A stretch of DNA of 64,000 nucleotides from a virus (IMGVR_UViG_3300026478_000263), one strand, 5' to 3'; positions 6,202 through 42,574 are shown, counted from the stretch's first letter. The notes: a model not told the origin generated them from the letters alone. Made by a program: numbers and translations.

Positions 6202-6510
6202 ATGCCAACTGTAGACACCGAAATTAAAATTGACGAAAAGATTAAAATCGATATCACTGAACCTAAGCGTTACAAGGTATTGTTTTTAAATGATAACAAA
6301 ACTCCAATCGACTTTGTTATTGAATTACTAATGACTGTGTTTAAGCACTCCAGAGAAAATGCTGAACAGATTACATTAACTGTACACAATGAAGGTTCAG
6401 CAGTAGTAGGTGTTTATACCTACGAGATCGCCGAGCAGAAAGGTGTTGAGGCAACACACCTTGCACGTCAAGCAGGCTTCCCATTACAAATTAAAGTGGA
6501 TTCCGAATGA
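6202..6510 (+). CDS. clpS: ClpS ATP-dependent Clp protease adaptor
   Basis: YKVLFLNDNKTPIDFVIELLMTVF...QITLTVHNEGSAVVGVYTYEIAEQK matches the ClpS core. Confidence 0.85.
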   Translation: MPTVDTEIKIDEKIKIDITEPKRYKVLFLNDNKTPIDFVIELLMTVFKHSRENAEQITLTVHNEGSAVVGVYTYEIAEQKGVEATHLARQAGFPLQIKVDSE

Positions 6511-11708: not shown

Positions 11709-11711
11709 GAC

Positions 11712-17607: not shown

Positions 17608-18140
17608 GAGCAAAAGAATTTATAAAAGAAGCAGAAGCAAGTGACGCCGATTTAAAAGCAAGATATGGTGACTTCGATCCTGAAGATAAAATAATGCTTC
17701 CAACTACAAAATTAAGCAGAGAACCTGCAGCCACGCTTTGGACAGCATATGATGTAGTTAGAAATATTCTAGGTAGAGATAGAGTAACTGACGATGATGA
17801 CGAATTAGGTCCTGGAATGTATTATGTCTACCAGAGTAGCGGAGATCCAATGTTTAGGGATACAGGCGACGGCGTTGGCAGTATCAACTTACCAAATCTA
17901 GACAGCACCGCGGCACGAGACGTTGCTGTTGCGGCCCACGAAGCATATCACGCTTATGTACACGCTAAAAGTAAAGGCGGCTTTGCACACGCTAATGAAA
18001 AGATTATTAACAACTTAGCAGAAAAATGGTTGCGTAAACATTTATCAGGACAAGCCTTACATACAGCATTAGAACAAATTATAGGCAGTAGAATTAGTTA
18101 CGGCCGCAACCACTTACCAAAGCCAGGATTTAAAAAATGA
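17604..18140 (+). CDS. putative injected zinc metalloprotease with T4-like capsid-targeting N-terminus
   Basis: starts MRAKEFIKEAE (internal Met of track ORF 17460..18140); contains HEAYH (HExxH) motif. Confidence 0.5.
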   Translation: MRAKEFIKEAEASDADLKARYGDFDPEDKIMLPTTKLSREPAATLWTAYDVVRNILGRDRVTDDDDELGPGMYYVYQSSGDPMFRDTGDGVGSINLPNLDSTAARDVAVAAHEAYHAYVHAKSKGGFAHANEKIINNLAEKWLRKHLSGQALHTALEQIIGSRISYGRNHLPKPGFKK

Positions 18141-20188
18141 AAATACAATTCAAAAAAATACTAGTAAGTCCATGGACTGCTTTACTAACTCTAGCACTAG
18201 TTGTTGGTGTCAGAGTTGCAGATCCTACATTTGTTGAAAGCGTAAGACTACGTTATTTTGACACATTAATTACAAGTAAAGAAGTTACAGTTAACAACAT
18301 AGTTACTGTAAATATCGACGAAGCCACGTTAGACAAATATGGTCAGTGGCCCTTACCAAGAGCAGAATATGCTAAACTTGTGAAGGAACTATACCAAAGA
18401 AATGCAGGACTTGTTGTACTTAATGTTCTTATGCCAGAGACAGATCGTACTGGTGGAGATGGTGCGCTAGGACAAACTCTAAAAGAGTTCCCTGTAGTAC
18501 TAGGAAGTGCGCCAGCACAGAAAACAAAGAATACACCACGTGTTCCAGGATCGGCTGTACTAGGTCCAGAACATCTAGATCAAATTATTCAATACCCGGG
18601 ACTAATCGCCAACGTTCCTCAACTAGAACAAAATGCCGCAGGTGTTGGCATTACAGGAACACTTCCAGAAGTAGATGGTGTTAATCGCCGCATGCCGTTA
18701 ATTGTTACTGTAGACGGCAAATTATATCCAGCATTGAGTTTAGAGACACTTAGAGTCGCCGCAGGAGACTCTACCTTCCAAGTAAAACTTTTTGAAGGCG
18801 GCGTTGAGAAAATGCGTATTCCAAAGTTTGGTCCTATTGCTACAGATAGTTTAGGAAGAATTTGGATCGATTGGAGCCAAGAAGCTCATAGCGTTAGTGC
18901 TGTTAAACTTCCAAAAGATTTAGGTGGCGCCGTCGTTATTGTAGGTCCTACTGCCGCTGGTATTAGTAATCCGTTACCGACAAGCAAAGGTGCTGTATTT
19001 CCTCACGAAGTGCAGGCCGCAGTAATTGGTACAATGGTTAACGGCATTGTTATTCAACGTCCCGACTATGCCGACGGGGTTGAAATTTTAGCATTAGTAT
19101 CACTTGGCATATTATTAATTTTCTTATCGAGGTGGACTTATGTTGGCATTGGTGCTACTGTGGTTATTGTTGGTGCCATCGTTCCTGGTACTATCTACGC
19201 TTTCAATAATTGGCTCGTCTTGGGAGACGCGACTGCGATCGCGTTTGGCCTTATTATCGTTGCTCTTCATTGTTATGGCGTTAAGTTTATAAGCGAGTTT
19301 TTACAGAAACAGGCAATTAAGAAACAGTTCGCTGGATACTGTAGTAAGGAAGTAGTAGAAATGCTACAAAAAGATCCAGACCTAATCAAGCGTGGTGTGC
19401 GTAAAGACGTATCCGTTATGTTCAGTGACTTGCGTGGCTTTACACCCATTGGAGAACACTACGGTGATGATGTTGCTGGATTAGGCAAGTATATGAACGG
19501 TTACATGGATGCTATTAGTCAGCCTATCATGGACAACAAGGGTATGGTCATAAAGTATGTAGGTGACGCAAGTATGCACATACACGGTGCTCCGATTGAA
19601 GATCCTAATCATGCCCGTACTATTGTTGCTGTTGGTTTACAGATGTTAGATGCTGTTGATGAGTATACTAAACTAATGGAAGCACAAGGCTTACCACCAG
19701 CCGCAATGGGTTGGGGTTGTAACTCAGGTATTGGCTTTATTGGTGAGATGGGATCAACTGACAGACATAGTTACGACATCTTAGGTGACATGGTTTCAAC
19801 CGCCGCTCGTTTAGAAGCACGTTGTAAGGCCTATGGCGTGTTATGTATCATCGGTGCTGAAACTTACAACCGTACTAAAGATGACTTCTTCTATCTAATG
19901 CTAGATAACTTACAACCTAAAGGCAAAACTGTAGCAGACTTAATCTATACAGCATTAAGAACCAAAGGTGAAGATTACAGTAAAGATAAAGTACAGCACG
20001 AGTTGATGCATGCCTTGTATAAACAAAAGAAGTTCGACGAAGCAGCCGCTATGTGTAAAAAACTAAAAGGCAACTTTGGTGGACAAATGGACAAGTACTA
20101 CAAAATCTGGATTGAACGTTGCGAGTTTATGAAAGAACAGAACCTTCCAGATAATTGGAATGGTGAATTCATAGCACATGAAAAATAA
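18137..20188 (+). CDS. CHASE2 sensor domain / class III adenylate(guanylate) cyclase
   Basis: N-terminal TM plus periplasmic CHASE2-like domain and several TM helices; C-terminal cyclase motifs VSVMFSDLRGFT ... KYVGDASM. Confidence 0.8.
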   Translation: MKIQFKKILVSPWTALLTLALVVGVRVADPTFVESVRLRYFDTLITSKEVTVNNIVTVNIDEATLDKYGQWPLPRAEYAKLVKELYQRNAGLVVLNVLMPETDRTGGDGALGQTLKEFPVVLGSAPAQKTKNTPRVPGSAVLGPEHLDQIIQYPGLIANVPQLEQNAAGVGITGTLPEVDGVNRRMPLIVTVDGKLYPALSLETLRVAAGDSTFQVKLFEGGVEKMRIPKFGPIATDSLGRIWIDWSQEAHSVSAVKLPKDLGGAVVIVGPTAAGISNPLPTSKGAVFPHEVQAAVIGTMVNGIVIQRPDYADGVEILALVSLGILLIFLSRWTYVGIGATVVIVGAIVPGTIYAFNNWLVLGDATAIAFGLIIVALHCYGVKFISEFLQKQAIKKQFAGYCSKEVVEMLQKDPDLIKRGVRKDVSVMFSDLRGFTPIGEHYGDDVAGLGKYMNGYMDAISQPIMDNKGMVIKYVGDASMHIHGAPIEDPNHARTIVAVGLQMLDAVDEYTKLMEAQGLPPAAMGWGCNSGIGFIGEMGSTDRHSYDILGDMVSTAARLEARCKAYGVLCIIGAETYNRTKDDFFYLMLDNLQPKGKTVADLIYTALRTKGEDYSKDKVQHELMHALYKQKKFDEAAAMCKKLKGNFGGQMDKYYKIWIERCEFMKEQNLPDNWNGEFIAHEK

Positions 20189-20209
20189 TTTGACAGAGAT
20201 TATAGCAGA

Positions 20210-20959
20210 GTGTACAATAGACAGATGTGTAGAGTTATATCTATATTGGTATTTTTTGCCTTTTTACATCATGGGCAAACAAGCGCCGCCACTGCCAAAC
20301 CTCTGTCTATCACCGCTCAGAGCTGGCTCGTGGCCGATGAATCCGGCAGAATTATTCAAAGCGAAAACATAGATCAACAGCGTAGTATTGCCAGCATTAC
20401 TAAACTAATGACGGCAATGGTTGTGTTAGATGCTAATCAAAACTTAGATGAACAAATCGGTAAGTATACCCGAGCCGAAACAATACAACTAGCATTAGTA
20501 CACAGCGACAACAAAGCGGCTGATCTACTGTGTCAATACTATCCTAATGGTAAGGATGCCTGTGTTAGAGCAATGAATACTAAAGCACATCTGTTAGGTA
20601 TGCACGACACAAAGTATGTCGAACCTACAGGGCTTAGTGTGTTTAATGTAAGCACAGCCACTGATTTAATTAAACTAGTTCTAGCGGCAAAGAACTACGC
20701 AGAGATTATTGAAGCATCACGCACACCGCAGGTTAAAATTAAGATAAAGAAAAAGTGGTTTATCTTTAATAATACTAATCCAATTATTGGCAAGCGTCAT
20801 GAATTTATTGTCAGCAAAACTGGCTACATAAGAGCCAGTGGAGGTTGCATAGTAATGATGTTGGATACAGAAATAGGACGCAGAATTGTAGTAGTACTAG
20901 GAAGTAAGAATACTAAGACACGTATTCCTGAAGCAGAGTTTATTGCTGTTAATTCCTAA
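20210..20959 (+). CDS. D-alanyl-D-alanine carboxypeptidase/endopeptidase (peptidase S11, PBP)
   Basis: signal peptide; SxxK (SITKLM), SxN (SDNKAAD) and KTG (SKTGYI) active-site motifs. Confidence 0.75.
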   Translation: MYNRQMCRVISILVFFAFLHHGQTSAATAKPLSITAQSWLVADESGRIIQSENIDQQRSIASITKLMTAMVVLDANQNLDEQIGKYTRAETIQLALVHSDNKAADLLCQYYPNGKDACVRAMNTKAHLLGMHDTKYVEPTGLSVFNVSTATDLIKLVLAAKNYAEIIEASRTPQVKIKIKKKWFIFNNTNPIIGKRHEFIVSKTGYIRASGGCIVMMLDTEIGRRIVVVLGSKNTKTRIPEAEFIAVNS

Positions 20960-21653
20960 CCTGTGCAAGGTTAAAGAAGCGTAGTACCTTAATATAGATC
21001 CAACCGATATCTAATTCAAACCAACGTTGACGGAAACTAGCATTGGCCCCATCGGCATGATGATTGTTATGTAGTTCCTCACCACCGATCCAAATAGCCC
21101 AAGGCCATAAGTTACGGCTAGTGTCTTTGGTGTCAGTATTACGATATCCCCACCAATGTGCCAGTCCATTAATAACACCAGCGGCCCAGAATGGAATCCA
21201 TATCATTTGAATGCCCCACACAAGAATACCCCAAGGACCAAAGAACAATAAGTCTATGACTAACATTAAGAGAATTCCAAGGCGGCTGTGTAGGGTGTAA
21301 ACATTACGCTCTAGCCAATCATCAGGAGTACCTACTCCTAACTTTTCAACCATTGCGGTATCTTTACTGGCAGAGTGATATAAACTCCAGCCTTTGAATA
21401 GCACAGTTTTAATACCGTAAACTTGTGGACTGTGCGGATCTAAATCTGTATCGCTGGCTTGATGATGTTTGCGATGTATTGCTACCCATTGCTTGGTAAC
21501 CATACCTGTTGTAAGCCAAAGCCAAAAACGCATGAAGTGATTTACTGCTGGATGGAATGTTACTGCTCTGTGTGTTTGTCCTCTATGAAGATAAAGGGTA
21601 ACACAGGCTATGGTGATTTGAACCATCACCAAGGTGGCTATAATTGTTGACAT
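20949..21653 (-). CDS. membrane fatty-acid desaturase (delta-9 acyl-CoA/lipid type)
   Basis: three His boxes (HRGQTH, HRKHHQASDTDLDPHSP, HNNHHAD) and 4 TM helices. Confidence 0.8.
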   Translation of the reverse strand: MSTIIATLVMVQITIACVTLYLHRGQTHRAVTFHPAVNHFMRFWLWLTTGMVTKQWVAIHRKHHQASDTDLDPHSPQVYGIKTVLFKGWSLYHSASKDTAMVEKLGVGTPDDWLERNVYTLHSRLGILLMLVIDLLFFGPWGILVWGIQMIWIPFWAAGVINGLAHWWGYRNTDTKDTSRNLWPWAIWIGGEELHNNHHADGANASFRQRWFELDIGWIYIKVLRFFNLAQVRN

Positions 21654-21655
21654 TA

Positions 21656-22090
21656 TTAACTCTCGCCAGCGGCCGCAGTCTTTTTATCGTCCGGGTCAAC
21701 TTTCTTTGCGCCAATCTTGTCTGCTTCTTCCATTGCTTCGTGGAACTTCTTGTTAGCCTGTGCTTCTACAAGTGCAGTTTCCATAACACGATCCGATTCA
21801 ATCATCTTACCACGTAGGTGTAAGACTGTATTAACTTTTTGGTTAAGACGAATCAAGTCATTGTCTAGCATACGGATACGGTCGATAAGAGCAATCAACA
21901 CAGTATTAGCATCGCTGATAACTGGCTTAACTTCTTTTGTGGCCCATTCCCAAACGTATTTGATAATGAAACCCATACCAACCGCCATAACGATTGGAAA
22001 CCCATACTTATTGACTAACTCTACGACATCCATTATATAATCATCCCTATTATTAAACCAACAACTAATCCAGTAATGCCAGCCTTCCAC
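21656..22090 (-). CDS. hypothetical protein
   Basis: intact minus-strand ORF; true start may be the internal Met at 22033. Confidence 0.35.
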   Translation of the reverse strand: MEGWHYWISCWFNNRDDYIMDVVELVNKYGFPIVMAVGMGFIIKYVWEWATKEVKPVISDANTVLIALIDRIRMLDNDLIRLNQKVNTVLHLRGKMIESDRVMETALVEAQANKKFHEAMEEADKIGAKKVDPDDKKTAAAGES

Positions 22091-22372: not shown

Positions 22373-22553
22373 TTTCGACTCTTTCCTTAATCAATACATT
22401 GACTCTATTAGCACAGTTTCTAATATCGTCACTAAGGTTACCTCGGCCAACTTCTTGTTCAATTAGTCTGGCTATGTCATGCAACGTTATAATTGCATCT
22501 TGTAATTTTGTATTAGTCTCGTCTAGCATCGTTCTTACCATCTGCTCTAGCAA
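22359..22553 (-). CDS. hypothetical small protein
   Basis: minus-strand ORF, overlaps neighbours by a few codons. Confidence 0.3.
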   Translation of the reverse strand: MLEQMVRTMLDETNTKLQDAIITLHDIARLIEQEVGRGNLSDDIRNCANRVNVLIKERVENAVC

Positions 22554-22794
22554 TACGATCTACGTCAGGGCGTAAACCTAATGCGTTGGACACAATAGTA
22601 TCAATACGTACAACATCGTGGTTCATTGTTTTTACACGATTGTCTAACGCAGTAATAATACCGGCCATACCTTTGATACTTCCCAAAACACCTTGTAGTA
22701 GTAATTTGATTGTTAGGTAAACAAAGTATCCACCTGCCAATGCCGCCGCTACCGGCATACCCAAATCACCAATTATTTTGAATATATCACCCAT
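22513..22794 (-). CDS. small membrane protein
   Basis: two predicted TM helices; 93 aa. Confidence 0.35.
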   Translation of the reverse strand: MGDIFKIIGDLGMPVAAALAGGYFVYLTIKLLLQGVLGSIKGMAGIITALDNRVKTMNHDVVRIDTIVSNALGLRPDVDRIARADGKNDARRD

Positions 22795-22846
22795 TTTACG
22801 CTCCGCTCTTTATACGTGTATTTATGTTAACTGAGTAGATAAGTAT

Positions 22847-22874
22847 TTGACAGGTTAAATAAATGTGTTATAAT
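22847..22874 (+). promoter_or_regulatory. sigma70 promoter with extended -10 (TTGACA-16-TGTTATAAT)
   Basis: TTGACA at 22847-22852, TATAAT at 22869-22874, TG extension; 27 nt upstream of gene 22901. Confidence 0.6.
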
Positions 22875-22900
22875 AGTAGCACTTAATAAAGTAAGGAATC

Positions 22901-23188
22901 ATGTCACAAGCACACGTTCAGAAGTTCGAAGCATCTATGTTTGAGTATTGCTCGGACCATGCCGAAAGGGCATACAAGTTATTTGAAGATGGAGAAGTAG
23001 ATGTTGGATTGGAAAGATTAGGCCATTTAGCAGATATACTCCAAATGTTAAAAAGTTCTAAAAGTTCAAACGGAACTATTAACATTAATACATTTGCACA
23101 AGAAGTAAAAGCATTAGATGAAATAGATAAAGATGCCGTATACACACACTTCCAAGAGAACGGCTTTGGACAATATATACCGGAGTGA
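22901..23188 (+). CDS. hypothetical protein
   Basis: ORF downstream of strong promoter; ATGA overlap with clpP. Confidence 0.4.
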   Translation: MSQAHVQKFEASMFEYCSDHAERAYKLFEDGEVDVGLERLGHLADILQMLKSSKSSNGTININTFAQEVKALDEIDKDAVYTHFQENGFGQYIPE

Positions 23189-23748
23189 AAATGAAAAAAA
23201 TTGATGAGTTCAATGCGGAAGATAGAATTGATCTTAGATTACTGGAAAATTCTACTTTTTATTTGAATGGAGAGATAGATGAAGATACAGTAGGCGAAGC
23301 CATCAAATGGATTCTCTATGAAAATTTACAAGGCGAAGGTAGAACTTTGACCTTGTATATTAACAGCACGGGCGGAGATTTGTATCAGGCTCTAGCGTTA
23401 ATTGATGTAATGCGTAGCAGTCCACATATTGTAAGAACTATTGGAATTGGTGCTGTCATGAGTGCGGCATTTTTAATTTTTGCCTGCGGTGATAAAAAGC
23501 ATCGTTATGCGGCTAGTAATACTAGTTTTATGTGTCACCAATTTACATCCGGAATGGATGCTAAGTATCACGACCTAAAAGCAGAAATGAAAGAAACCGA
23601 ATTGTTAAATGAAAAGATGATAACAATTCTAACCGAAACAACAGGCTTGGTTAAAAGTAGAGTTAAAGCAAAACTACTACCAGCCAGCGATGTTTACCTA
23701 ACTGCACAAGAAGTGGTTGACTTTGGGGTAGCGGATCATATAGTATAG
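23185..23748 (+). CDS. clpP: ClpP-family serine protease subunit
   Basis: 187 aa; GIGAVMSAAFLIFACGDKKHRYAASNTSFMCHQ matches ClpP catalytic Ser/His region. Confidence 0.8.
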   Translation: MKMKKIDEFNAEDRIDLRLLENSTFYLNGEIDEDTVGEAIKWILYENLQGEGRTLTLYINSTGGDLYQALALIDVMRSSPHIVRTIGIGAVMSAAFLIFACGDKKHRYAASNTSFMCHQFTSGMDAKYHDLKAEMKETELLNEKMITILTETTGLVKSRVKAKLLPASDVYLTAQEVVDFGVADHIV

Positions 23749-23886
23749 TGATGTATAAGGTAAGATACTACATGACTGCTGGAACACTTTCATCGAGAAC
23801 GTTTGCTACACTAAGTGAGGCAATAGAGTTTTCGGTGTACAAGGTCGGCTTCATGCAACTCTACGGAATAGATAAGATAGATTAAA

Positions 23887-24723
23887 ATGCGTAATCATTA
23901 TTGGACTTGTTCAAAATTTGCAGATTGGCTTCGTGGTACTACTAAACTAAAGTGTGGGACTAGCGAAGAGTGGGACGAGTGGGAATCTCGTGCTAAAGCC
24001 GCGTATCCTATCCGTTGGTGGTTAGCAGAAGAAGGATTGGATCATTTACAAACAGTTGTATTTTTTATTCCGGATAAACTACATGCTCTCAAATATTACA
24101 TTAACAACCGTTGGGTTACTAAAACTCATGCCCTTACCGCTCATCCTCGTGATATCAAGCCCGGTGATTGGCACGATGTTGGTAATCGTTTTTTACCTTG
24201 TCTCTTTAATGAACTTCAAGATTTTGTCGAGGTTGAACTAGCCTGGTGGCACATAGCATGGAGTGACAAGAGTGAAAGAGAAAAATACAAAGCACCGTTT
24301 TGGGCTACTGGTTGGTTCAGATGGCGCACTTGGCGTTGTCCTCAAGCCGGACTTGACAACCTTGAATGGCAACGTAATCTACGTTGGAAAGAAGACGAAG
24401 TTGGACCAGACAGTAAGAACCTTGGCGAACTTACTCCGCAGGCAGTCAAAGCGCAGGAAATCTTAGACTTGTACACATGGTGGACACAGGTATATCGTAA
24501 TCGTCCAGAGCCGATGGAAGCAAGTGGCTGGACTGCTTACTGTGAAGCCGCACGTTTAGCCAACGGTGGCAAATTAAGTTTCAGTAATGACAAGACTCCT
24601 GAACTTAGAAAGATGAGCGATAAAGCACACAAGTTACTTCGTAAAATCGAAGCAGACTATGAAAAAGAAGATGAGGCTATGATGATTCGCCTAATCAAAG
24701 TGAGGCACGGATTATGGACATAA
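23887..24723 (+). CDS. hypothetical Trp-rich protein
   Basis: 278 aa intact ORF. Confidence 0.4.
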   Translation: MRNHYWTCSKFADWLRGTTKLKCGTSEEWDEWESRAKAAYPIRWWLAEEGLDHLQTVVFFIPDKLHALKYYINNRWVTKTHALTAHPRDIKPGDWHDVGNRFLPCLFNELQDFVEVELAWWHIAWSDKSEREKYKAPFWATGWFRWRTWRCPQAGLDNLEWQRNLRWKEDEVGPDSKNLGELTPQAVKAQEILDLYTWWTQVYRNRPEPMEASGWTAYCEAARLANGGKLSFSNDKTPELRKMSDKAHKLLRKIEADYEKEDEAMMIRLIKVRHGLWT

Positions 24724-24881
24724 GTTATAAGTGTCCTGTCTGTGAAAGTGAGAAACAATATAGCAACAAGTACGATGCGTATTTTTGCGAGTTGTGTAAT
24801 AAGTGGCTAGAAGAACCGTGCAAGGATCCAGAGTGTCAATTCTGTACTACACGGCCAGAAAAGCCCAGCCAAGTTGGCTAA
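24714..24881 (+). CDS. small zinc-ribbon protein (55 aa), not in ORF track
   Basis: MDISYKCPVCESEKQ...CELCNKW...CQFCT: two CxxC pairs; ATGA overlap with upstream gene. Confidence 0.3.
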   Translation: MDISYKCPVCESEKQYSNKYDAYFCELCNKWLEEPCKDPECQFCTTRPEKPSQVG

Positions 24882-24913
24882 AAGTAATAAACATAATAAC
24901 AAGGAGAAACATT

Positions 24914-25114
24914 ATGGCAACAAACAGATTTCAAGATTTTTCAAAACTAATCGAAGCCGCAGAAGGTGACTTTGAAAAGTTCTATGACAAGGGTGTTAAT
25001 GCCGCAGGTACTCGTGTTCGCAAGCACTTACAAGAGTTAGCCAAACTATGTAAAGAAGTTCGTAACGATGTAACCGCAGTAAAGAACGAACGTAAAGAAT
25101 CCGCAGGTAAGTAA
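24914..25114 (+). CDS. small basic alpha-helical protein
   Basis: AAGGAG RBS 8 nt upstream of ATG at 24914 (internal Met of track ORF 24803..25114). Confidence 0.4.
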   Translation: MATNRFQDFSKLIEAAEGDFEKFYDKGVNAAGTRVRKHLQELAKLCKEVRNDVTAVKNERKESAGK

Positions 25115-25497
25115 TGGATAAAAAAGAAATCAAACGCGATGTAGCAACATTCGCTCATATGCTCAAGGAGTTAATGAACGATCCTACACCAGATGTACTA
25201 GTAACATTGGATCGCGACATTCAGCATTTCATCTATGGCAGAACCGCAGTATTAGTAAAACATAATGAAGGCAAGCCAATTGGTACAGTAGCAGATATTG
25301 CCGCAGTAGTTGGGGCGGCCTTTGCTGATGTACTAAAAGAATTTACTAGAGGTCGTGTTAGTGATGCAGAATTAGATACAATAGTCCAAACTGCAAGAGC
25401 CAACTTACTCAGTGGATTTGAAGCAAGAGCTCCTAAGCCTGAAGTAAATACAGAAGCACCGGCAGAAGAGCCAGCAAAAGAGGAAGTAGCACAATGA
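25114..25497 (+). CDS. hypothetical protein
   Basis: ATGG overlap with upstream gene; 127 aa. Confidence 0.4.
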   Translation: MDKKEIKRDVATFAHMLKELMNDPTPDVLVTLDRDIQHFIYGRTAVLVKHNEGKPIGTVADIAAVVGAAFADVLKEFTRGRVSDAELDTIVQTARANLLSGFEARAPKPEVNTEAPAEEPAKEEVAQ

Positions 25498-25703
25498 TTC
25501 CAGCATACAGTGAAGAAGTAAAGATTCATGTACATGAAAAAGATCCAAATCTTCTTCCGCTGGAGCAACAGGTTCGACAACTTCAAGAGCAGGTTCGACT
25601 GTTACAGGAAAGCGTTGAGTATATAAATCGAGAACGCAGTCGTTTAAAAAGCGAACTTGATATAATTAGAAATGCAATGAATAGGAGTAGCAATGGATCG
25701 TGA
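25494..25703 (+). CDS. coiled-coil small protein
   Basis: 69 aa; heptad-like QLQEQVRLLQE. Confidence 0.35.
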   Translation: MIPAYSEEVKIHVHEKDPNLLPLEQQVRQLQEQVRLLQESVEYINRERSRLKSELDIIRNAMNRSSNGS

Positions 25704-25878
25704 AAAAATTCAACACCACATTAAGCATTTACAAAAGAAGCACGACGAATTGGATCGTTTAATTCAAGAAGAGTTTAATAGATACCAAGACGACAAAGCA
25801 GTAAGTAATCTTAAAAAAGAAAAATTACATCTTAAAGATGAAATTGAAAAATTTAAGAAGGACTTAGATTTATTATGA
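25693..25878 (+). CDS. DUF465 (YdcH-like) small protein
   Basis: KKHDELDRLIQEE...LKKEKLHLKDEIEKF matches the DUF465 consensus. Confidence 0.45.
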   Translation: MDREKIQHHIKHLQKKHDELDRLIQEEFNRYQDDKAVSNLKKEKLHLKDEIEKFKKDLDLL

Positions 25879-25970
25879 CGTTGCTGTTCTGGTTAATTAT
25901 CGCCGCAGTGGTCGGTTGGGTCATTTGGTGGATCATGGACTGGCACGATAAATTTCCAGATGGCGAATAA
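25875..25970 (+). CDS. tiny transmembrane peptide (31 aa)
   Basis: MTLLFWLIIAAVVGWVIWWIMDW; ATGA overlap. Confidence 0.25.
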   Translation: MTLLFWLIIAAVVGWVIWWIMDWHDKFPDGE

Positions 25971-25972
25971 CA

Positions 25973-26551
25973 ATGCAGTACAATGAATTTTTAGATTGGG
26001 TAGATATTGACAAGTTTTCAGATGCTTGTAATAACATCTGTCATCAGACAGTATTAAATGAATCCACAAATCGAATGATGAAAGAAAAATTCATTATTGC
26101 GGCAATGCAATTATCTAATCATAAAAAGAACATCGAGTGGACTGACGTTCGCGATTACGATATAAAATTTACCGATTGGACCAATGGCGACGTAGAAGTT
26201 AAAACTGGCAACGAACCTTTGTTCTACGCAAAGTCAGGAACTCCTAAAAAGACAATCAGTCTTAAATTAAAAAATGTTTACGAAAGTAAGAATCAAAGAA
26301 CTACACTAGACAAAGTTTTTAATCATTTAATGATAGTCCAAATTAAAGGAACATTCGCTGTTGCCTTTGTAGATTACGCAACAGTTAAGGCTAATCTAAA
26401 ACAATTAACAGACGGCTTCTTAGTCAAACTAACACACGACCAAATAAATATTGTGTACAAAAAAGATATGAGAAATGAACCGACATCTTGGACAATTGAC
26501 TTAGATCCAAAACCTTGGATATTTGGCACATTAGCAAAGGCAGGCGTTTAA
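25973..26551 (+). CDS. hypothetical protein
   Basis: 192 aa intact ORF. Confidence 0.4.
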   Translation: MQYNEFLDWVDIDKFSDACNNICHQTVLNESTNRMMKEKFIIAAMQLSNHKKNIEWTDVRDYDIKFTDWTNGDVEVKTGNEPLFYAKSGTPKKTISLKLKNVYESKNQRTTLDKVFNHLMIVQIKGTFAVAFVDYATVKANLKQLTDGFLVKLTHDQINIVYKKDMRNEPTSWTIDLDPKPWIFGTLAKAGV

Positions 26552-26885
26552 AGAATTGTTGTAATCCCTTCAAAGCGAAGGACTTCTGGACGCGGGTTCG
26601 ACTCCCGCCAGGTCCACCATAAGGACATAAATTTACTTTGGTATTCATTGTAAATTTACTTTGGTATTGTGTTTTTATGATGGGCCTGCCATGGTTTCGA
26701 CAGGGGTAGATAGTAGAGACGGCAACACGGTAGGCGATGACCGTAAATCAAGCAAAACTAGTAAATGCAAACGCATCTACATTTGAGTACTTCACTGTTG
26801 AAGGCTTCACAGCCGACAATGGTCTAGTAGCAGCCTAAGAAACTGCAACTCCGGGGTAGGACTTACCTTGTAACCCAAACAACCA
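26552..26885 (+). ncRNA. ssrA: circularly permuted (two-piece) tmRNA
   Basis: acceptor piece 26552-26619 ends GGACGCGGGTTCGACTCCCGCCAGGTCCACCA (T-arm + CCA); coding piece starts GGGCCUG at 26682, which pairs with CAGGUCC giving a G3-U70 wobble; tag frame ends ...GLVAA then TAA at 26836. Confidence 0.6.
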
Positions 26886-26910
26886 AAGGGCCTTCGGGCC
26901 CTTTTTTATT
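26886..26910 (+). terminator. rho-independent terminator
   Basis: GGGCCTTCGGGCCC hairpin + TTTTTTATTTT; identical hairpin reused at 35323. Confidence 0.75.
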
Positions 26911-26922
26911 TTACCAAACACA

Positions 26923-26951
26923 TTGACAGATGCCCTGTCCGAGCCTATAAT
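26923..26951 (+). promoter_or_regulatory. sigma70 promoter TTGACA-17-TATAAT
   Basis: perfect consensus hexamers. Confidence 0.6.
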
Positions 26952-26987
26952 ACACAGTATCGCAGTTTTATTTCATAGAAAGATCAC

Positions 26988-28067
26988 ATGACCTATTTCC
27001 TAAAGCAAGGTAGCACTTACCGAGTATCCAAAAAAGAAGCACTTGATATTCAAGAGAAGTTGCCGGCTGGTAACTATGTCGTTAAAAAGGACGAGATGTC
27101 TGGGCAGTTGTTTCTTGAAACAATTGACAAGTTCGAAATCAAAGGCAAGATTTACGGCGATACAAACAAACGTGCCGACCGTATTCTTTATGCGTTTGAG
27201 GATCGTCCCAGTACTACTGGCGTAATGCTTACTGGTGAAAAAGGTTCTGGCAAAACACTATTGGCTAAGATGCTTTCTGTCAAGGGATATGACAAAGGTA
27301 TTCCTACTATTGTAATCAATGCTCCTTGGTGTGGAGACCAATTCAATGCGTTCATTCAAAGTATTGAACAACCTGTAATTGTAGTGTTTGATGAATTTGA
27401 AAAAGTCTATGATGAACACGAGCAAGAACAGATGCTGACTCTGCTGGACGGTGTGTACCCAACCAAAAAGTTGTTTGTGCTTACTTGTAACGACAAATGG
27501 CGTGTTAATAGCCATATGCGTAATCGTCCTGGTCGTGTTTATTACAGCCTTGAGTATAAGGGCTTGGATGCAGACTTCATTCGTGAATACTGCATGGACA
27601 ATCTTCAAAACAAAGAACACATTGAAAAGATTGTAGGTATTGCTGGTACGTTTGACCAATTCAACTTTGACATGCTGAAGGCATTGGTTGAAGAAATGAA
27701 TCGTTTCGACGAAACTCCGCAGGAAGCAATGACTATGCTGAATGCCAAACCAGAATACGGTTCGACTTCTCGTTATGCAATCAAGTTGGTTATCAATGGC
27801 GAAGAAGTCAAAGAAAACAATTTTGAAGACAAGGAATGGGAAGGCAATCCTCTTAACAAGAATGTCAACATTTCTTACAAGGTTATTGAACGTGACGAAG
27901 AAACTGGTGACGAAGATTGGGATTGGCAGGGTATCCGATTCACTCCGGACGAGTTGAAGAAGATTGATGACAATGGTACCAAGTACGTGTTCACTAACAA
28001 GGAAGGTGCAAGCCTTATCCTTACCAAAGTTAAAGAGAAGACTTACTCTTACTGGGACGCTTTTTAA
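26988..28067 (+). CDS. AAA+ ATPase (ClpX/HslU-like Walker A)
   Basis: Walker A GEKGSGKTLLAKML, Walker B VIVVFDEFEK; 359 aa. Confidence 0.7.
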   Translation: MTYFLKQGSTYRVSKKEALDIQEKLPAGNYVVKKDEMSGQLFLETIDKFEIKGKIYGDTNKRADRILYAFEDRPSTTGVMLTGEKGSGKTLLAKMLSVKGYDKGIPTIVINAPWCGDQFNAFIQSIEQPVIVVFDEFEKVYDEHEQEQMLTLLDGVYPTKKLFVLTCNDKWRVNSHMRNRPGRVYYSLEYKGLDADFIREYCMDNLQNKEHIEKIVGIAGTFDQFNFDMLKALVEEMNRFDETPQEAMTMLNAKPEYGSTSRYAIKLVINGEEVKENNFEDKEWEGNPLNKNVNISYKVIERDEETGDEDWDWQGIRFTPDELKKIDDNGTKYVFTNKEGASLILTKVKEKTYSYWDAF

Positions 28068-32619: not shown

Positions 32620-32693
32620 GCGCTTGAAGCTCAATGGATAGGCAGGGACTTCTAAACTCCCGATAGCAGGTTCGATTCCTGTCTAGCGCACCA
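32620..32693 (+). tRNA. tRNA-like gene with anticodon CTA (amber-suppressor type), slightly non-canonical
   Basis: acceptor GCGCTTG/CTAGCGC (one U-U), D-arm, anticodon stem GGGAC/CTCCC with loop TTCTAAA (CUA), T-arm GCAGG-TTCGATT-CCTGT, discriminator A, encoded CCA. Confidence 0.45.
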
Positions 32694-37152: not shown

Positions 37153-37210
37153 ACAAAGACAGTAGCAATTCCGCTACAACTTTTAAGAAGGTAAGAAAAA
37201 GAGAAACAAA

Positions 37211-37372
37211 ATGCAAACGATTAGTTTACATAGACAAACGATATCTAAACAAGCCAAAGCGCCGGCATGTATGTCCGCCTATTGGTCACAGTTTAGTAAT
37301 GTCGGGCTAGGTCTAGGTAATGATCGTACACCTGAGATTATCGTAGGGTTCTTGGAGGATCGTGTAAGTTAA
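37211..37372 (+). CDS. hypothetical small protein (53 aa), not in ORF track
   Basis: RBS-like AAGAAGG upstream; followed by terminator hairpin 37395-37425. Confidence 0.3.
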   Translation: MQTISLHRQTISKQAKAPACMSAYWSQFSNVGLGLGNDRTPEIIVGFLEDRVS

Positions 37373-37394
37373 CAGTAACATACACAATAACTTT

Positions 37395-37425
37395 TAAGAA
37401 CCCTGGACTAAAAACCCAGGGTTTT
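37395..37425 (+). terminator. rho-independent terminator
   Basis: AACCCTGG..CCAGGGTT hairpin + TTTTTGTTTT. Confidence 0.65.
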
Positions 37426-37815
37426 TTGTTTTGTAAGATTTGGAAATGAAAATGAATTTTGAAGATTTTAGAAAACAGAAAAGTGCCAAAGTGCTAAGTG
37501 AGCATGAACTGGACGACGATGCTTTTGAAAAACTCATCGAAGAAAAGTTTAATCGTGCTCGTGCTTATCACACAGCACTTTACAAGAGAGAAGTTGAGCT
37601 CGTAGAGCAAGACTAATCTCAAACGTGTTATAGGGAACGCGACCCTGCCTGCACGTAAAACATGGGCTTAATGTGGGCGGCCTACCGGATGGTAAGTTCT
37701 AGGCGATAACTAGAATGTGTAAAAAGGTAGCGTATTAAAGCATACTGCCGAACAATCAAATGGCAGTAGCCGATGAGTAGTATGCTTTAATACACACTTT
37801 CGAAAGAGAGTGTTA

Positions 37816-37890
37816 TGTATCCCTAGTGTTAATGGCAGCACGACAGTCTCCAAAACTGCTAGTCGGGGTTCGAGTCCCTGGGGGTACGCC
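37816..37890 (+). tRNA. tRNA-Trp (CCA)
   Basis: acceptor GTATCCC/GGGGTAC, anticodon loop CTCCAAA, T-loop TTCGAGT, CCA encoded. Confidence 0.75.
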
Positions 37891-37895
37891 AATAA

Positions 37896-37973
37896 TGCAA
37901 CGGTGGCAGAGAGGCCCAATGCAACGGATTGCAAATCCGTAAAACCGTCAGTTCAAATCTGACCCGTTGCTCC
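37896..37973 (+). tRNA. tRNA-Cys (GCA)
   Basis: acceptor GCAACGG/CCGTTGC, anticodon arm ACGGA-TTGCAAA-TCCGT, T-arm GTCAG-TTCAAAT-CTGAC. Confidence 0.8.
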
Positions 37974-37981
37974 AGGTTATA

Positions 37982-38071
37982 TCCCCCGTTAGCTCATGGA
38001 GAGCAGGTCGGCTTATAACCGATTAATCTAGATAAGGTCCAGGATGAGGTTCGATTCCTCAACGGGGGACC
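37982..38071 (+). tRNA. class II-like tRNA (90 nt, long variable arm), anticodon loop CTTATAA (formal anticodon TAT) - isotype unresolved
   Basis: acceptor CCCCCGT/ACGGGGG + A + CCA, T-arm TGAGG-TTCGATT-CCTCA, 21-nt variable region. Confidence 0.5.
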
Positions 38072-38243
38072 ATAAGGAGAATATTATGGCAGTACTTGTA
38101 GTGTTAGTTATAATGTTCGTGTTGTATCAAGTTTTGAAAAAATATTAAAAGGAGAGTAGCATGAAACGTGCTAAACGTTAGTGTCACTCTAGATCTCCCG
38201 TATGGTCTAGGGTTGGCACGTAAAATCAAATCAATACGTACAA

Positions 38244-38319
38244 CCCTGTTTAGCGTCAATGGTAGCGCACTTGACTCTTAATCAATGAGGTGTGAGTTCG
38301 AATCTCACAGCAGGGACCA
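38244..38319 (+). tRNA. tRNA-Lys (CTT)
   Basis: anticodon loop CTCTTAA, T-arm GTGAG-TTCGAAT-CTCAC, CCA encoded. Confidence 0.7.
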
Positions 38320-38322
38320 TAT

Positions 38323-38397
38323 GGGGGTATAACTTAATGGTTAAAGTAGCGGGCTTTTAACCCGTAAATCAGAGTTCGATTCTCTGTGCCCCTACCA
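38323..38397 (+). tRNA. tRNA-Lys (TTT)
   Basis: anticodon arm GCGGG-CTTTTAA-CCCGT, T-arm CAGAG-TTCGATT-CTCTG. Confidence 0.8.
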
Positions 38398-38579
38398 TAT
38401 GAAAGCATTCTTAACTGGTCGCATAGCGTCAGTAGTAAGGACGGGCCACCATCTTATGACGAAAAAGGCATAAGAGTGCTTCCATATGGTAGTGTATAAA
38501 AACAAACTAACCACAGCCAGGAACTATAGACTCTGGGTGCATAGCGCATTGTCGTTAGTTTCTTTTTGTATAGTATTAT

Positions 38580-38653
38580 TCCTGGATAGTTAAATGGTAT
38601 AACAATCGGCTGATAACCGGTCATTCTGAGTTCAATTCTCGGTCCAGGAACCA
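38580..38653 (+). tRNA. tRNA-Ile (GAT)
   Basis: perfect acceptor TCCTGGA/TCCAGGA, anticodon loop CTGATAA. Confidence 0.75.
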
Positions 38654-38659
38654 ATTTAC

Positions 38660-38734
38660 ATAGCGTTCGACTTCTGGGGAGGTCATCACCCTTTCAAGGT
38701 GACTAGGCGGGTTCGATCCCCGTACGCTATACCA
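38660..38734 (+). tRNA. tRNA-Glu (TTC)
   Basis: perfect acceptor ATAGCGT/ACGCTAT, anticodon arm TCACC-CTTTCAA-GGTGA. Confidence 0.75.
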
Positions 38735-38819
38735 GAGCAAATAGAGATCTTGTGGGTTCATCCATGTTCTCTCAATGTTTGTTAGTTTCAATGGGTGGTA
38801 TAGAAACTAACACCAATTT

Positions 38820-38894
38820 GGGGGCAGTAGTGGGCTACGGTCTTCCCTTGCAAGGAAGATGTCTAGAAGGATTCGATTTCCTCGGCCTCCACCA
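38820..38894 (+). tRNA. tRNA-Ala (TGC)-like with truncated D-arm
   Basis: acceptor GGGGGCA/GGCCTCC with G3-U70, anticodon arm CTTCC-CTTGCAA-GGAAG; D region only 15 nt, variable 8 nt. Confidence 0.45.
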
Positions 38895-38983
38895 AATTTG
38901 CGACAATGGTGGGTTAACCGGCCTTGCCGGGGCATTCTAGATTACCGCGAAGGTTCGAGTCCTTCGGTCGCAATTATTTTTAT

Positions 38984-39061
38984 CTCTGCGTAATGTCAAT
39001 CTGGTAGACGGCCTGATCTGGAGTCAGGAGGCTGTACGTTCGAATCGTACCGTGGAGACCA
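38984..39061 (+). tRNA. tRNA-Pro (TGG)-like (C33 in anticodon loop)
   Basis: anticodon arm CCTGA-TCTGGAG-TCAGG, T-arm GTACG-TTCGAAT-CGTAC, CCA encoded. Confidence 0.5.
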
Positions 39062-39066
39062 ATTTT

Positions 39067-39141
39067 GCCCTTGTATCCTTAGTGGTAGAGGTCCTGTTTT
39101 GTAAGCAGGGTGTGGTGGTTCGATTCCATCCTGGGGCACCA
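39067..39141 (+). tRNA. tRNA-Thr (TGT), second copy
   Basis: anticodon arm CCTGT-TTTGTAA-GCAGG, T-arm GGTGG-TTCGATT-CCATC. Confidence 0.6.
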
Positions 39142-39367
39142 AGTTTTGTAAGTGTCAGCAAGAGAATGTCACGCTATTGTAGGTAAGTTCGAACTACCTT
39201 AATAGTAAAAGGGGACGGGTTCAACTCCCGGGGGATCGGAAGATCCCTGCAGATTGGTTGCTAACTGGACTAGTATCCCAAGTGACGTACCGAGTCCCAG
39301 CCGGCTTTATATACATGGGTGAATGGTTGCTATAACGATGGGGCAACTACTTACAAATTCAATCTGT

Positions 39368-39441
39368 TGGCCTATGGTGTAATGGTAACACAACTGACTT
39401 TGACTCAGTCGTTCCAGGTTCGAGTCCTGGTAGGCCTGCCA
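39368..39441 (+). tRNA. tRNA-Gln (TTG)
   Basis: anticodon arm ACTGA-CTTTGAC-TCAGT, discriminator G, weak 1-72 pair as in bacterial tRNA-Gln. Confidence 0.7.
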
Positions 39442-39448
39442 ATTTTAA

Positions 39449-39525
39449 CGGTCCTTAACTCAATGGATTAGAGTGCCAGTCTTCGAAACTGGAGGTTGGG
39501 AGTTCGAGTCTCTCAGGGCCGGCCA
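39449..39525 (+). tRNA. tRNA-Arg (TCG)
   Basis: anticodon arm CCAGT-CTTCGAA-ACTGG, D-stem ACTC/GAGT. Confidence 0.75.
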
Positions 39526-39527
39526 AT

Positions 39528-39602
39528 GGTGTTGCTAGTGTAGTGGTCCGCACGGCTGTCTGTGAAACAGTAAGGCAGGGTTCGATTCCCGGCTTCACCC
39601 CA
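39528..39602 (+). tRNA. tRNA-His (GTG) with G-1
   Basis: anticodon arm GCTGT-CTGTGAA-ACAGT, extra 5' G pairing with C73, two U-U mismatches in acceptor stem. Confidence 0.6.
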
Positions 39603-39608
39603 AATATC

Positions 39609-39684
39609 GCCGCTTTAGCAAATGTGGTCATTGCACCGGTTTGAAGCACCGAGGAACTTGGTTCGATCCCAAGGGGCGGCACCA
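39609..39684 (+). tRNA. tRNA-Phe (GAA)
   Basis: anticodon loop TTGAAGC, T-arm CTTGG-TTCGATC-CCAAG. Confidence 0.75.
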
Positions 39685-39691
39685 TAATTAT

Positions 39692-39768
39692 GCCCTTGTA
39701 CGCTAATTGGTAATGCGAATGGATTTAAAATCCGTTGTGTGTAGGTTCGAATCCAACCAAGGGTACCA
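39692..39768 (+). tRNA. type-I (short variable arm) tRNA with anticodon TAA (Leu codon UUA) - atypical
   Basis: anticodon arm ATGGA-TTTAAAA-TCCGT, 5-nt variable loop, discriminator A, CCA encoded. Confidence 0.55.
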
Positions 39769-39769
39769 T

Positions 39770-39841
39770 GCCTCTGCTGATGGAGCAGTGCCAGGTCTTC
39801 TAAACCAGGTTATAGTAGTTCGAATCTACTCAGAGGCGCCA
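39770..39841 (+). tRNA. tRNA-Arg (TCT)-like, short D-arm
   Basis: perfect acceptor GCCTCTG/CAGAGGC, anticodon loop CTTCTAA, T-arm AGTAG-TTCGAAT-CTACT; 72 nt. Confidence 0.5.
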
Positions 39842-39843
39842 AG

Positions 39844-39917
39844 GCTCTTGTAGGTAAATGGTATACCAGTGTCTTGGTACGACACAATCGAAAGTTCGAT
39901 TCTTTCCTTGAGCACCA
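39844..39917 (+). tRNA. tRNA-Thr (GGT)
   Basis: anticodon arm GTGTC-TTGGTAC-GACAC; two U-U mismatches in acceptor. Confidence 0.65.
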
Positions 39918-39922
39918 GATAT

Positions 39923-40000
39923 ACCCCTGTGGACAAATTGGTAAAGTCGTCTCTCTCAAAAGGAGAAGTTCTCTCCGTTCGAATCGGAGCAGGGGTACCA
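39923..40000 (+). tRNA. type-I tRNA with anticodon CAA (Leu codon UUG) - atypical
   Basis: perfect acceptor ACCCCTG/CAGGGGT, anticodon arm TCTCT-CTCAAAA-GGAGA, 6-nt variable loop, discriminator A. Confidence 0.55.
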
Positions 40001-40046
40001 CATTTGTAGCAGATTCTATCTACAACGAATTATACAAGTAAAACAA

Positions 40047-40136
40047 CGAAGCGTGGCAGAGTCCGGTTTATTGCACCTGTCTTGAAAACAGACGATCCGA
40101 AAGGGTCCGTGAGTTCGAATCTCACCGCTTCGGCCA
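40047..40136 (+). tRNA. tRNA-Ser (TGA)
   Basis: class II, perfect acceptor CGAAGCG/CGCTTCG, anticodon loop CTTGAAA, long variable arm GATCC-GAAA-GGGTC. Confidence 0.8.
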
Positions 40137-40143
40137 AAAGGTG

Positions 40144-40172
40144 TTGACTTGTTTAACAGTTGATCGTATAAT
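40144..40172 (+). promoter_or_regulatory. sigma70 promoter TTGACT-17-TATAAT inside tRNA array
   Basis: consensus hexamers 9 nt upstream of tRNA-Ser(GCT). Confidence 0.55.
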
Positions 40173-40180
40173 ACAAATAT

Positions 40181-40275
40181 AGTGAGTTGGCCGAGCTGGT
40201 CGAAGGCACCTTCCTGCTAAGAAGGCATTCCTGCAAAAACGGGGATCAAGGGTTCGAATCCCTTACTCACTGCCA
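40181..40275 (+). tRNA. tRNA-Ser (GCT)
   Basis: class II, perfect acceptor AGTGAGT/ACTCACT, anticodon arm CCTTC-CTGCTAA-GAAGG. Confidence 0.8.
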
Positions 40276-40282
40276 AAATGTC

Positions 40283-40311
40283 TTGACTAGTTTCTAAAGT
40301 TCATATACAAT
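40283..40311 (+). promoter_or_regulatory. sigma70 promoter TTGACT-17-TACAAT inside tRNA array
   Basis: consensus hexamers upstream of tRNA-Tyr. Confidence 0.5.
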
Positions 40312-40362
40312 AGAGACTAGTTAAGAAATTAACCTAGTTCTTTAAAAATTTCAAGCAGATAT

Positions 40363-40448
40363 GGATGTGTAGGAAAATTGGTAACCCCAGTGGACTGTAA
40401 ATCCGCCGCCTTACGGCACTGCTGGTTCGACTCCAGCCGCATCCACCA
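40363..40448 (+). tRNA. tRNA-Tyr (GTA)
   Basis: class II, anticodon arm GTGGA-CTGTAAA-TCCGC, T-arm GCTGG-TTCGACT-CCAGC. Confidence 0.75.
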
Positions 40449-41093
40449 TTAAGAAATAGCATTGACGGGTATCGTCTATGGACGCATAGACTTATGAAGG
40501 ATAAGGCCATCTTACCCTTCTGAGAAAACCGTGAACAATGGCTTATGAGGAGAATCGAACTCCACTCAGAAATACGTTTCATCCCATAGGGTGTAATGTT
40601 ATTTTTTAATGGTAAAAATTTAAGGGTAGTTTATTATCCTGTTGGCGGTTCGCCGTTGACGAAGAATAAGTTGAGTGATCAACCCAAAGGAGGTAAGCCT
40701 ACGCAACTCCGCCAGTAATGGTTCATGTAAACAAGCCTGCTCACTACCGCGAGGTAGCGTTCACTGAGAAGACCGGTGGATGTAACAATGAAGCAAGTGT
40801 TAGGGAAAGAATGTGTATCGACTGGCCCGCAAGGGAACCAGGGTGCATGAAAAGTAACGGGTGGTGCTGACTTCCTAACAAAACCAACTTGCGAATTGGT
40901 ATGAGAAAGGGTAGTGTATTTGTCCAAGGGGTCGCTCCTAAGGGCTTGTATGCAATATTAATGGTTAGTGGACTGTTTTGATGCAGGACATTGATCGTGA
41001 AATATCACTGAGTAGTCCGCGAGACAAAAGGTATGTGGTGAGTTGTATTCAGTAATCCAAAAGGTTATTGAGCAACAGAGGCAGCTCATCGCG

Positions 41094-41169
41094 GTAGGTT
41101 TGATATAGCGTAATGGTAACGCAATTGCCTCTTAAGCAATGGACTGTTGGTTCGATCCCAACTATCGAT
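41094..41169 (+). tRNA. tRNA-Lys(CTT)-like, defective acceptor stem, no CCA (possible pseudo-tRNA)
   Basis: D-arm GCG-TAATGGTAA-CGC, anticodon arm ATTGC-CTCTTAA-GCAAT, T-arm GTTGG-TTCGATC-CCAAC; 5' acceptor pairs poorly. Confidence 0.3.
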
Positions 41170-41665: not shown

Positions 41666-41679
41666 AGATAACTATTAAT

Positions 41680-42483: not shown

Positions 42484-42484
42484 T

Positions 42485-42568: not shown

Positions 42569-42574
42569 AAATAT

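Follow-up and report, generated by a model that had tools for sequence, protein, structure and literature searches.

The plus strand directly downstream of gene 25973-26551, in a 64,000-nucleotide viral stretch (IMGVR_UViG_3300026478_000263; the whole stretch is hereafter called the window), carries a locus whose sequence supports its reading as a phage-encoded, circularly permuted, two-piece tmRNA gene. When the sequence was read over 25900-27100, all elements listed in a first-pass annotation of this DNA were found where it had placed them. The acceptor piece (26557..26619, plus strand, as are all parts of the gene), delimited by the Rfam RF04321 alignment, the sequence and covariation, is the 3' half of a tRNA-like domain. 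It holds the 5' strands of two segments of the long helix, P2a (26557-26561) and P2c (26582-26588), both placed by the RF04321 alignment and covariation, followed by elements legible in the sequence itself: the T-arm GCGGG-TTCGACT-CCCGC (26592-26608), the acceptor 3' strand CAGGTCC (26609-26615), a discriminator A (26616) and an encoded CCA (26617-26619). The claimed tRNA-like 3' piece is thus present. An intervening segment, or spacer, of 62 nt (26620..26681, bounded by sequence), which is predicted to be excised from the precursor, separates it from the 5' part of the coding piece (26682..26743; Rfam alignment, stem dissection and covariation). This part opens with the acceptor 5' strand GGGCCTG (26682-26688), which had been noticed some 62 nt further on as a pairing partner; it does pair with CAGGUCC at seven of seven positions, the third pair, G26684:U26613, being the G3:U70 wobble. 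Also within 26682..26743 lie a D-loop-like motif, GGTTTCGA, the 3' strands of P2c (26701-26707) and P2a (26723-26727), both assigned by Rfam and covariation, and a hairpin, CGGT-AGGCGATG-ACCG (26728-26743), which Rfam puts at the first pseudoknot (PK1); a second PK1 stem was not identified alongside it.

The tag frame (26767-26835) comprises 23 codons for ANASTFEYFTVEGFTADNGLVAA and is supported by ARAGORN, by the motif upstream of it and by the codon-position pattern in related long tags. It begins with the predicted resume codon GCA (26767-26769), preceded by GUAAAU in a GUAAAU-GCA context that is conserved among relatives, and ends at the stop TAA (26836-26838), in agreement with the earlier report of a frame closing in TADNGLVAA. 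The 3' region of the coding piece (26839..26884), which includes GAAACTGCA... and a small GGTA/TACC hairpin, is conserved in alignments of the relatives, and it leads into an intrinsic terminator (26885..26910) made of a GC-rich hairpin, AAAGGGCC-TTCG-GGCCCTTT (26885-26904), and a T-run to 26910, where a strong terminator had been marked at 26886. This hairpin is kept in relatives, with covariation. The order of the parts is therefore permuted, with the CCA (26617-26619) first, then the intervening segment, then G1 at 26682 and lastly the tag with its stop (26767-26838). Such a set of features at one locus is far more than chance would be expected to yield.

Two of the checks that the annotation had proposed, ARAGORN and a search for Rfam models of two-piece tmRNA, came out positive. 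By ARAGORN, 26527-26929 is a permuted tmRNA whose tag is ANASTFEYFTVEGFTADNGLVAA. Rfam RF04321 (tmRNA_permuted) scores 138.4 bits against a threshold of 47 (E 4e-27; model positions 1-213 of 213; window 26557-26838), and RF01850 (beta_tmRNA) scores 129.4 bits against a threshold of 84 (E 4e-39; model positions 1-331 of 331). A covariance-model hit, the lack of which had been named as grounds for abandoning the idea, was thus obtained twice, well above threshold. The proposed affiliation with alphaproteobacterial or cyanobacterial tmRNAs has to be revised, since beta_tmRNA is the best-scoring model of Rfam clan CL00001 at the locus; the rest of the clan gave way to it as overlapping hits of lower score, their individual scores not being displayed, and alpha_tmRNA (RF01849) and cyano_tmRNA (RF01851), which lost the clan competition, were unlisted even at E up to 10. 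Betaproteobacteria represent a third lineage with permuted tmRNA (Sharkady and Williams, 2004, as cited in PMC9004378), and these model scores place the RNA with the betaproteobacterial type and not with the alphaproteobacterial or cyanobacterial one. It shares with RF01850 the permuted order, the tRNA-like domain, the long helix, the pre-tag hairpin, the UAAAU-GCA resume context and the 3' terminator hairpin, and aligns to the model end to end. It differs in residing in a phage, in its 62-nt spacer (against about 18 unaligned model positions), in a tag of 23 rather than about 10 residues, in an extra 40 nt inserted at the point where a promoter is expected by the model, and in belonging to a clade whose characteristic sequence hardly occurs in genomes of bacterial species.

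Conservation and distribution among phages

Related genes were sought in IMG/VR with a pattern made of the T-arm and the acceptor 3' strand, in which the two middle acceptor positions were left free and the acceptor 5' strand was unconstrained. The pattern matched at least 118 viral contigs, about 100 of which have a permuted tmRNA by ARAGORN. In all of the 103 genes that were dissected the permuted order is the same, with spacers of 9-273 nt, the acceptor stem is paired at seven of seven positions, and G3:U70 is always retained; pairs 4 and 5 of the stem occur in five different compensating combinations. For covariation, 86 distinct sequences were trimmed to both halves of the tRNA-like domain, aligned and scored on the Rfam-derived structure. 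Paired cells amounted to 95.1%, as against 40-50% when the partners were slid by 1-3 columns; 19 of the 28 pairs show changes on both sides, and the observed covariation score was matched in 0 of 500 shuffles. Pairing reaches 100% in the acceptor stem and in the T-arm helix, each with two covarying pairs, while the outer part of P2 (26557-61 with 26723-27) is 97.7% paired with five of five pairs covarying, and the inner part (26582-88 with 26701-07) 99.3% paired with six of seven. For the middle of the long helix we tried both a local hairpin and the register of the beta model, and neither stood clearly above the slid controls. The pre-tag hairpin, 26728-26743, changes in a compensatory manner between the window (CGG/CCG) and the related loci L008 (GAG/CTC) and L076 (CAG/CTG); it is 68.9% paired across the mixed alignment of all clades, where it aligns poorly. 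The pairing of GGGCCUG with CAGGUCC and the tag frame, whose conservation in related phage genomes had been put forward as decisive, are accordingly both conserved there.

The genome that carries the gene is, by its gene content and relatives, that of a widespread, uncultured jumbo phage. Directly downstream of the tmRNA lie genes for a phage ATPase (phrog_2376, 326 bits) and for rIIA (phrog_612, 464 bits). The ATPase is encoded at 49-87% identity on 46 IMG/VR contigs, which reach 372 kb in length, and the identical protein occurs in 94 blocks of a metagenome collection, on contigs of up to 264 kb; it is these flanking genes, the IMG/VR relatives and the long contigs with identical ATPase that point to a jumbo phage. 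Contigs found by the tmRNA pattern alone tell a similar story, many of them sharing with the window DnaK, HSP20, ClpS and heme oxygenase, as well as a bilin reductase, a CHASE2 cyclase, AhpC and other genes. Window positions 15000-39000 gave no nucleotide match among 50,697 phage records, and the phage thus has no cultured close relative there. The nearest cultured relative by rIIA is Xanthomonas phage XacN1 (385 kb), at 29.5% identity, and Microbacterium phage Pumpernickel matches at 58% by the ATPase alone.

A pattern specific to the window's own clade of tmRNAs was present in 37 of the 118 viral loci, among the matches listed of the IMG/VR scan, and in two contigs, both from MAGs, among 185,579 species-representative genomes. 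One of the two (L167) matches the window in eight homologous genes and also has a tRNA(CTA), arranged as in the window, and the other (L168) has one homolog. The clade therefore seems, on sequence distribution, to propagate in phages and to be almost confined to phage contigs. These numbers bear on the reading of the gene as a functionless passenger, that is, a remnant of a host tmRNA or attachment site acquired by imprecise excision, or a piece of a bacterial contig mistaken for phage. Such an origin has some precedent, in that tmRNA genes are frequent integration sites and prophages hold fragments of them (PMC9004378; PMC4383910). The gene described here, however, is complete rather than a 3' fragment, its flanking genes encode a phage ATPase and rIIA, and the scan of ORFs across the window turned up no integrase; the distribution just given, including the homologs of window genes on the two MAG contigs, and the covariation within the phage copies, which points to purifying selection within phages, further argue against a passenger, and we regard this explanation as barely credible.

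As to the host, the alphaproteobacterial or cyanobacterial assignment that the annotation had attached to the permuted arrangement receives no support, the nearest phage-borne copies being those of Xanthomonas phage XacN1 and Pseudomonas phage SM1. Xanthomonas and Pseudomonas have one-piece tmRNAs. Since their phages carry the permuted beta type, the permuted form does not identify the host, and we rejected the tmRNA subtype as a host marker. A host call from the rIIA and ATPase proteins was also attempted; these gave distant matches only, and no host was assigned.

Genomic neighborhood and transcription

The only promoter candidate directly upstream of the tmRNA is a weak, sigma-70-like one, TTGACT-16-GATATT (26496..26523, plus strand; 9 of 12 matches), which lies inside the end of ORF 25973-26551; no strong promoter was found there. 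In the related locus L008, a perfect TTGACA-17-TATAAT promoter abuts the acceptor piece. Given a candidate with only 9 of 12 matches, the window copy is probably transcribed weakly, or else by read-through from an upstream block that contains a ClpP gene. A perfect sigma-70 promoter, TTGACA-17-TATAAT (12 of 12), is present right after the terminator (26923-26951, plus strand), ahead of the ATPase gene at 26988, and points to transcription of this region by host RNA polymerase.

The annotation had also noted ClpP and ClpS in the genome, and both are borne out. The phage ClpP (23185..23748, plus strand; PF00574, 115 bits) has plausible Ser/His/Asp catalytic residues and lies 2.8 kb upstream of the tmRNA on the same strand, and we propose it as a candidate partner for the degradation of tagged proteins; the ClpS adaptor (6202..6510, plus strand; PF02617, 102.6 bits) is encoded outside the tmRNA gene. 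A ClpP homolog occurs on the tmRNA strand within 1-4 kb in 14 of 106 viral loci, a linkage that is modest but recurrent. SmpB was found neither by Pfam scans among 60 window ORFs nor by tblastn in 1.49 Mb of window and related loci, the latter being a lead-level search with an E. coli SmpB query (best E 0.7), so that function would depend on a compatible host SmpB.

The surroundings of the gene are variable. A fixed synteny with the downstream ATPase was considered and rejected, since a tmRNA lies within 4 kb in only 5 of the 46 ATPase relatives, on one side or the other. In L008, L023, L046 and L167 the tmRNA follows a homolog of a 93-aa gene (window 22513-22794), from which the window tmRNA is separated by a 3.7-kb block made up of a 95-aa ORF, ClpP, an Hc1-like gene, small ORFs and a 192-aa ORF. 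In relatives this 93-aa ORF usually lies next upstream of the tmRNA, and its L046 counterpart is 99% identical; the ORF and its neighbor 21656-22090, both on the minus strand, match the same family, phrog_18771. A near-identical strain on a 264-kb contig (L170; ena:ERZ27251543:k141_297362) differs from the window by a strain-level insertion or deletion of about 22795-26549, which leaves its 93-aa gene some 270 nt ahead of the tmRNA, and the gap contains no called ORF. Window and L170 part at about 26549, where the tmRNA has its 5' edge, and from there the tmRNA is 100% identical. Identity of 100% holds for the tmRNA in three assemblies besides that of the window, one of them with a different upstream context.

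The tag peptide and the intervening segment

With 23 residues and an end in ...GLVAA, a hydrophobic-Ala-Ala terminus placed directly before the TAA, the window tag is atypical; the commonest length of tmRNA tags is 10 aa (PMC11915505), and most phage copies found here carry ordinary 10-mers. Tags of 20-32 residues are encoded by 27 of the 103 genes. The window and about 20 of these 27 have in common an N-terminal module, ANAxTF(E/D/K)(F/Y), and many of the long tags close with a second, canonical-looking ANDxxFALAA. In the largest long-tag group the variable columns at codon positions 1, 2 and 3 number 5, 4 and 12, and this third-position excess points to constraint at the peptide level; the window's own small subgroup is too diverged to inform on the matter. 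We found no literature on these tag motifs.

It is conceivable that the phage uses a working tmRNA to reprogram tagging, replacing the host tag with a phage-specific long one and thereby changing the fate of tagged host proteins, with the ANAxTF(E/D/K)(F/Y) module either being read by a phage-specific adaptor or protease, or delaying degradation. The recurrence of the long tags and of their shared module, the peptide-level constraint on them, the near confinement of the clade to phage contigs and the proximity of ClpP in some of the loci are all consistent with this idea. Against it, most phage copies, including those of the ATPase-close relatives L129, L131 and L138, encode ordinary 10-mers (ANDxxYALAA), the window tag still ends in a standard hydrophobic-Ala-Ala degron, and no candidate adaptor was identified. 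ClpS reads N-degrons and not ssrA tags. We consider tag reprogramming unlikely.

The intact frame bears also on a quite different proposal, in which the RNA would be a decoy or inhibitor that titrates host SmpB or alanyl-tRNA synthetase and so blocks host trans-translation. This has been proposed for a molecule of phage DS6A, which, as cited in PMC4131195 and PMC11915505, consists of a tRNA-like domain only and inhibits tmRNA in E. coli, and the failure to find a phage SmpB here would fit such a role. Unlike the DS6A molecule, however, the window RNA has retained a tag frame that is complete, with a conserved resume context before it and a stop and a degron-like end to close it, none of which a decoy would need, and the related tags are under coding constraint. 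A decoy is, in our estimation, highly unlikely.

The spacer of the window contains a perfect 17-nt direct repeat, AAATTTACTTTGGTATT, at 26629-26645 and 26652-26668, and the sequence occurs nowhere else in the window. The repeat is kept in L008 and L075, with different bases between its copies in L008. We considered the copies as tandem extended -10 promoters, which the promoter scan did not support. The ends of the spacer, TAAG... and ...TTATGAT in the window, are conserved across 95 unique intervening segments, with a consensus of NAA(G/A) after the CCA and TTnTGAT before G1, and a T at -1 in 88 of 94; such strongly conserved ends fit processing signals. In relatives the spacer may have a further content. 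Among 73 unique segments that keep the TGA at -4 to -2, 15 are filled by an ATG-initiated ORF of 23-75 aa that ends at this conserved TGA just before G1, as compared with 3.7 +/- 1.8 in shuffles, and 10 of the 15 have a Shine-Dalgarno-like AAGGAG. These ORFs are found in L014, L034, L043, L049, L052, L058, L079, L091, L094 and other loci; many of the peptides are hydrophobic, and L034/L043/L014 and L052/L091 form homologous sets. The window's own spacer is without such an ORF, and we found no literature on ORFs in tmRNA intervening segments. One may imagine, if with considerable doubt, a phage-restricted beta-type lineage that combines a long bipartite tag, ANAxTF(E/D/K)(F/Y) plus an Ala-Ala degron, recognized by an adaptor or protease specific to the phage, with a spacer that doubles, in the relatives and not in the window, as mRNA for a hydrophobic peptide. 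Were the bipartite tag real, the phage would control the fate of the proteins it rescues, and long tags and spacer ORFs in relatives, if real, would mean that trans-translation has been altered in phages and not just copied by them.

Proposed function and precedents

We suggest that the locus is, very probably, an intact, circularly permuted, beta-type two-piece tmRNA gene in an uncultured jumbo phage, serving ribosome rescue with tagging. The sequence of events that we envisage follows established knowledge of trans-translation and of two-piece tmRNAs (PMC11915505; PMC8012679). A single precursor, probably made from the weak promoter or by read-through of the upstream block containing ClpP, would be cut by RNase P 5' of G26682 and trimmed at its 3' side until the CCA at 26619 is exposed; the 62-nt spacer would be discarded, and the two RNAs would stay base-paired. 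The CCA end would be charged by alanyl-tRNA synthetase through G3:U70, and SmpB, supplied by the host as far as the window shows, would bring the RNA into stalled ribosomes, where translation would resume at GCA 26767 and append ANASTFEYFTVEGFTADNGLVAA. The C-terminal hydrophobic-Ala-Ala end would then direct the tagged products to Clp-type proteases, possibly including the phage ClpP; that tagged proteins are degraded by ClpXP, ClpAP and Lon is established (PMC8012679). ClpXP tagging may in this way be taken over by the phage. The likely benefit would be that ribosomes are kept free during infection, when decay of host mRNA yields many non-stop messages, and the rescue RNA would act alongside the 33 tRNAs, DnaK, HSP20 and ClpS of the phage.

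Phage tmRNAs have long been known from mycobacteriophages of the Bxz1 group and from phage G (PMC4131195), tmRNA and SmpB occur in huge phages (PMC7162821), and the tmRNA database holds 79 phage sequences (PMC11915505). The Bxz1-group mycobacteriophages, Bacillus phage G and the huge phages resemble the present case in having rescue RNAs within large genomes rich in translation genes (PMC4131195; PMC7162821; PMC12484599); they differ from it in that the tmRNAs of the Bxz1 group and of phage G are of one piece and unpermuted, and in that some huge phages encode SmpB, which was not found in the window. Two-piece tmRNA has been reported in the OM43 phage Melnitz and in pelagimyophages, and a survey of 18,146 phage genomes listed 53 two-piece genes called by ARAGORN, mostly aquatic (PMC9004378). 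Melnitz is similar to our phage in several respects, being a large, T4-like aquatic myovirus with a permuted ssrA, curli CsgGF (window 11169-12881) and tRNAs, and the roles proposed for its tmRNA, upkeep of translation or tagging of host proteins, are the same (PMC9004378). Its gene is, in contrast, reported to be of the alphaproteobacterial type and under the control of a glutamine riboswitch (PMC9004378), whereas that of the window is of the beta type and no riboswitch adjoining it was detected by Rfam.

The nearest copies among cultured phages are those of XacN1 (AP018399, about 37201-37621; locus L001) and SM1 (KU245542, about 54041-54461; L002), in which ARAGORN and Rfam identify permuted tmRNAs (RF01850, 108-111 bits) that are missing from the GenBank annotation. 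Their tags are ANANTFDYALAA and ANDTSFDVRLAA, respectively. XacN1 agrees with the window in the beta type, in having tRNA(CTA) genes near the tmRNA, and in a tag that shares the window's N-terminal motif; XacN1 and SM1 differ from it in tags of 12 residues and spacers of 112-114 nt, and their genomes are distantly related, with no nucleotide match. Pseudomonas phage PaMx31 gave a weak BLAST match to the tmRNA. At least two cultured phages thus carry such genes unannotated, and a phage two-piece tmRNA is a poor host marker. As two-piece tmRNAs in phages have already been published (PMC9004378), as has tmRNA together with SmpB (PMC7162821), the novelty of the gene is modest: it is an addition to the known phage two-piece tmRNAs and not a new kind of element. 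What it offers is a well-supported case of a phage with its own ribosome-rescue RNA beside ClpP, ClpS, DnaK, HSP20 and 33 tRNAs, in keeping with the view that jumbo phages take over both translation and the quality control of proteins.

The remainder of the window is dense in host-like auxiliary genes, at 3768-7734, 11169-12881, 18137-21653 and 24803-25114. They encode DnaK (855 bits), HSP20, ClpS, a heme oxygenase with a ferredoxin-dependent bilin reductase, curli CsgF/CsgG, a CHASE2-adenylate/guanylate cyclase, a D-Ala-D-Ala carboxypeptidase, a fatty-acid desaturase and a chlamydial Hc1-like histone protein. The 33 tRNA genes, all on the plus strand, cover most amino acids, and 31 of them fall within 7.7 kb, in 37817-45473, with one at 10267-10342 lying outside this array. 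An amber-suppressor-like tRNA with the anticodon CTA is encoded at 32620-32693 (plus strand) and recurs in XacN1 (L001, 322-480), L121-L134, L152, L154 and L167; a general linkage of tRNA(CTA) with the tmRNA was considered and rejected, the two occurring together in only 4 of 97 tmRNA loci found by pattern. The stops of 63 window ORFs are TAA in 44, TGA in 18 and TAG in one. Inside the tRNA array lies a GOLLD RNA (41035-41498, plus strand; RF02032, full model, 207 bits against a threshold of 150), within which a tRNA-Lys(CTT) is embedded at 41098-41171.
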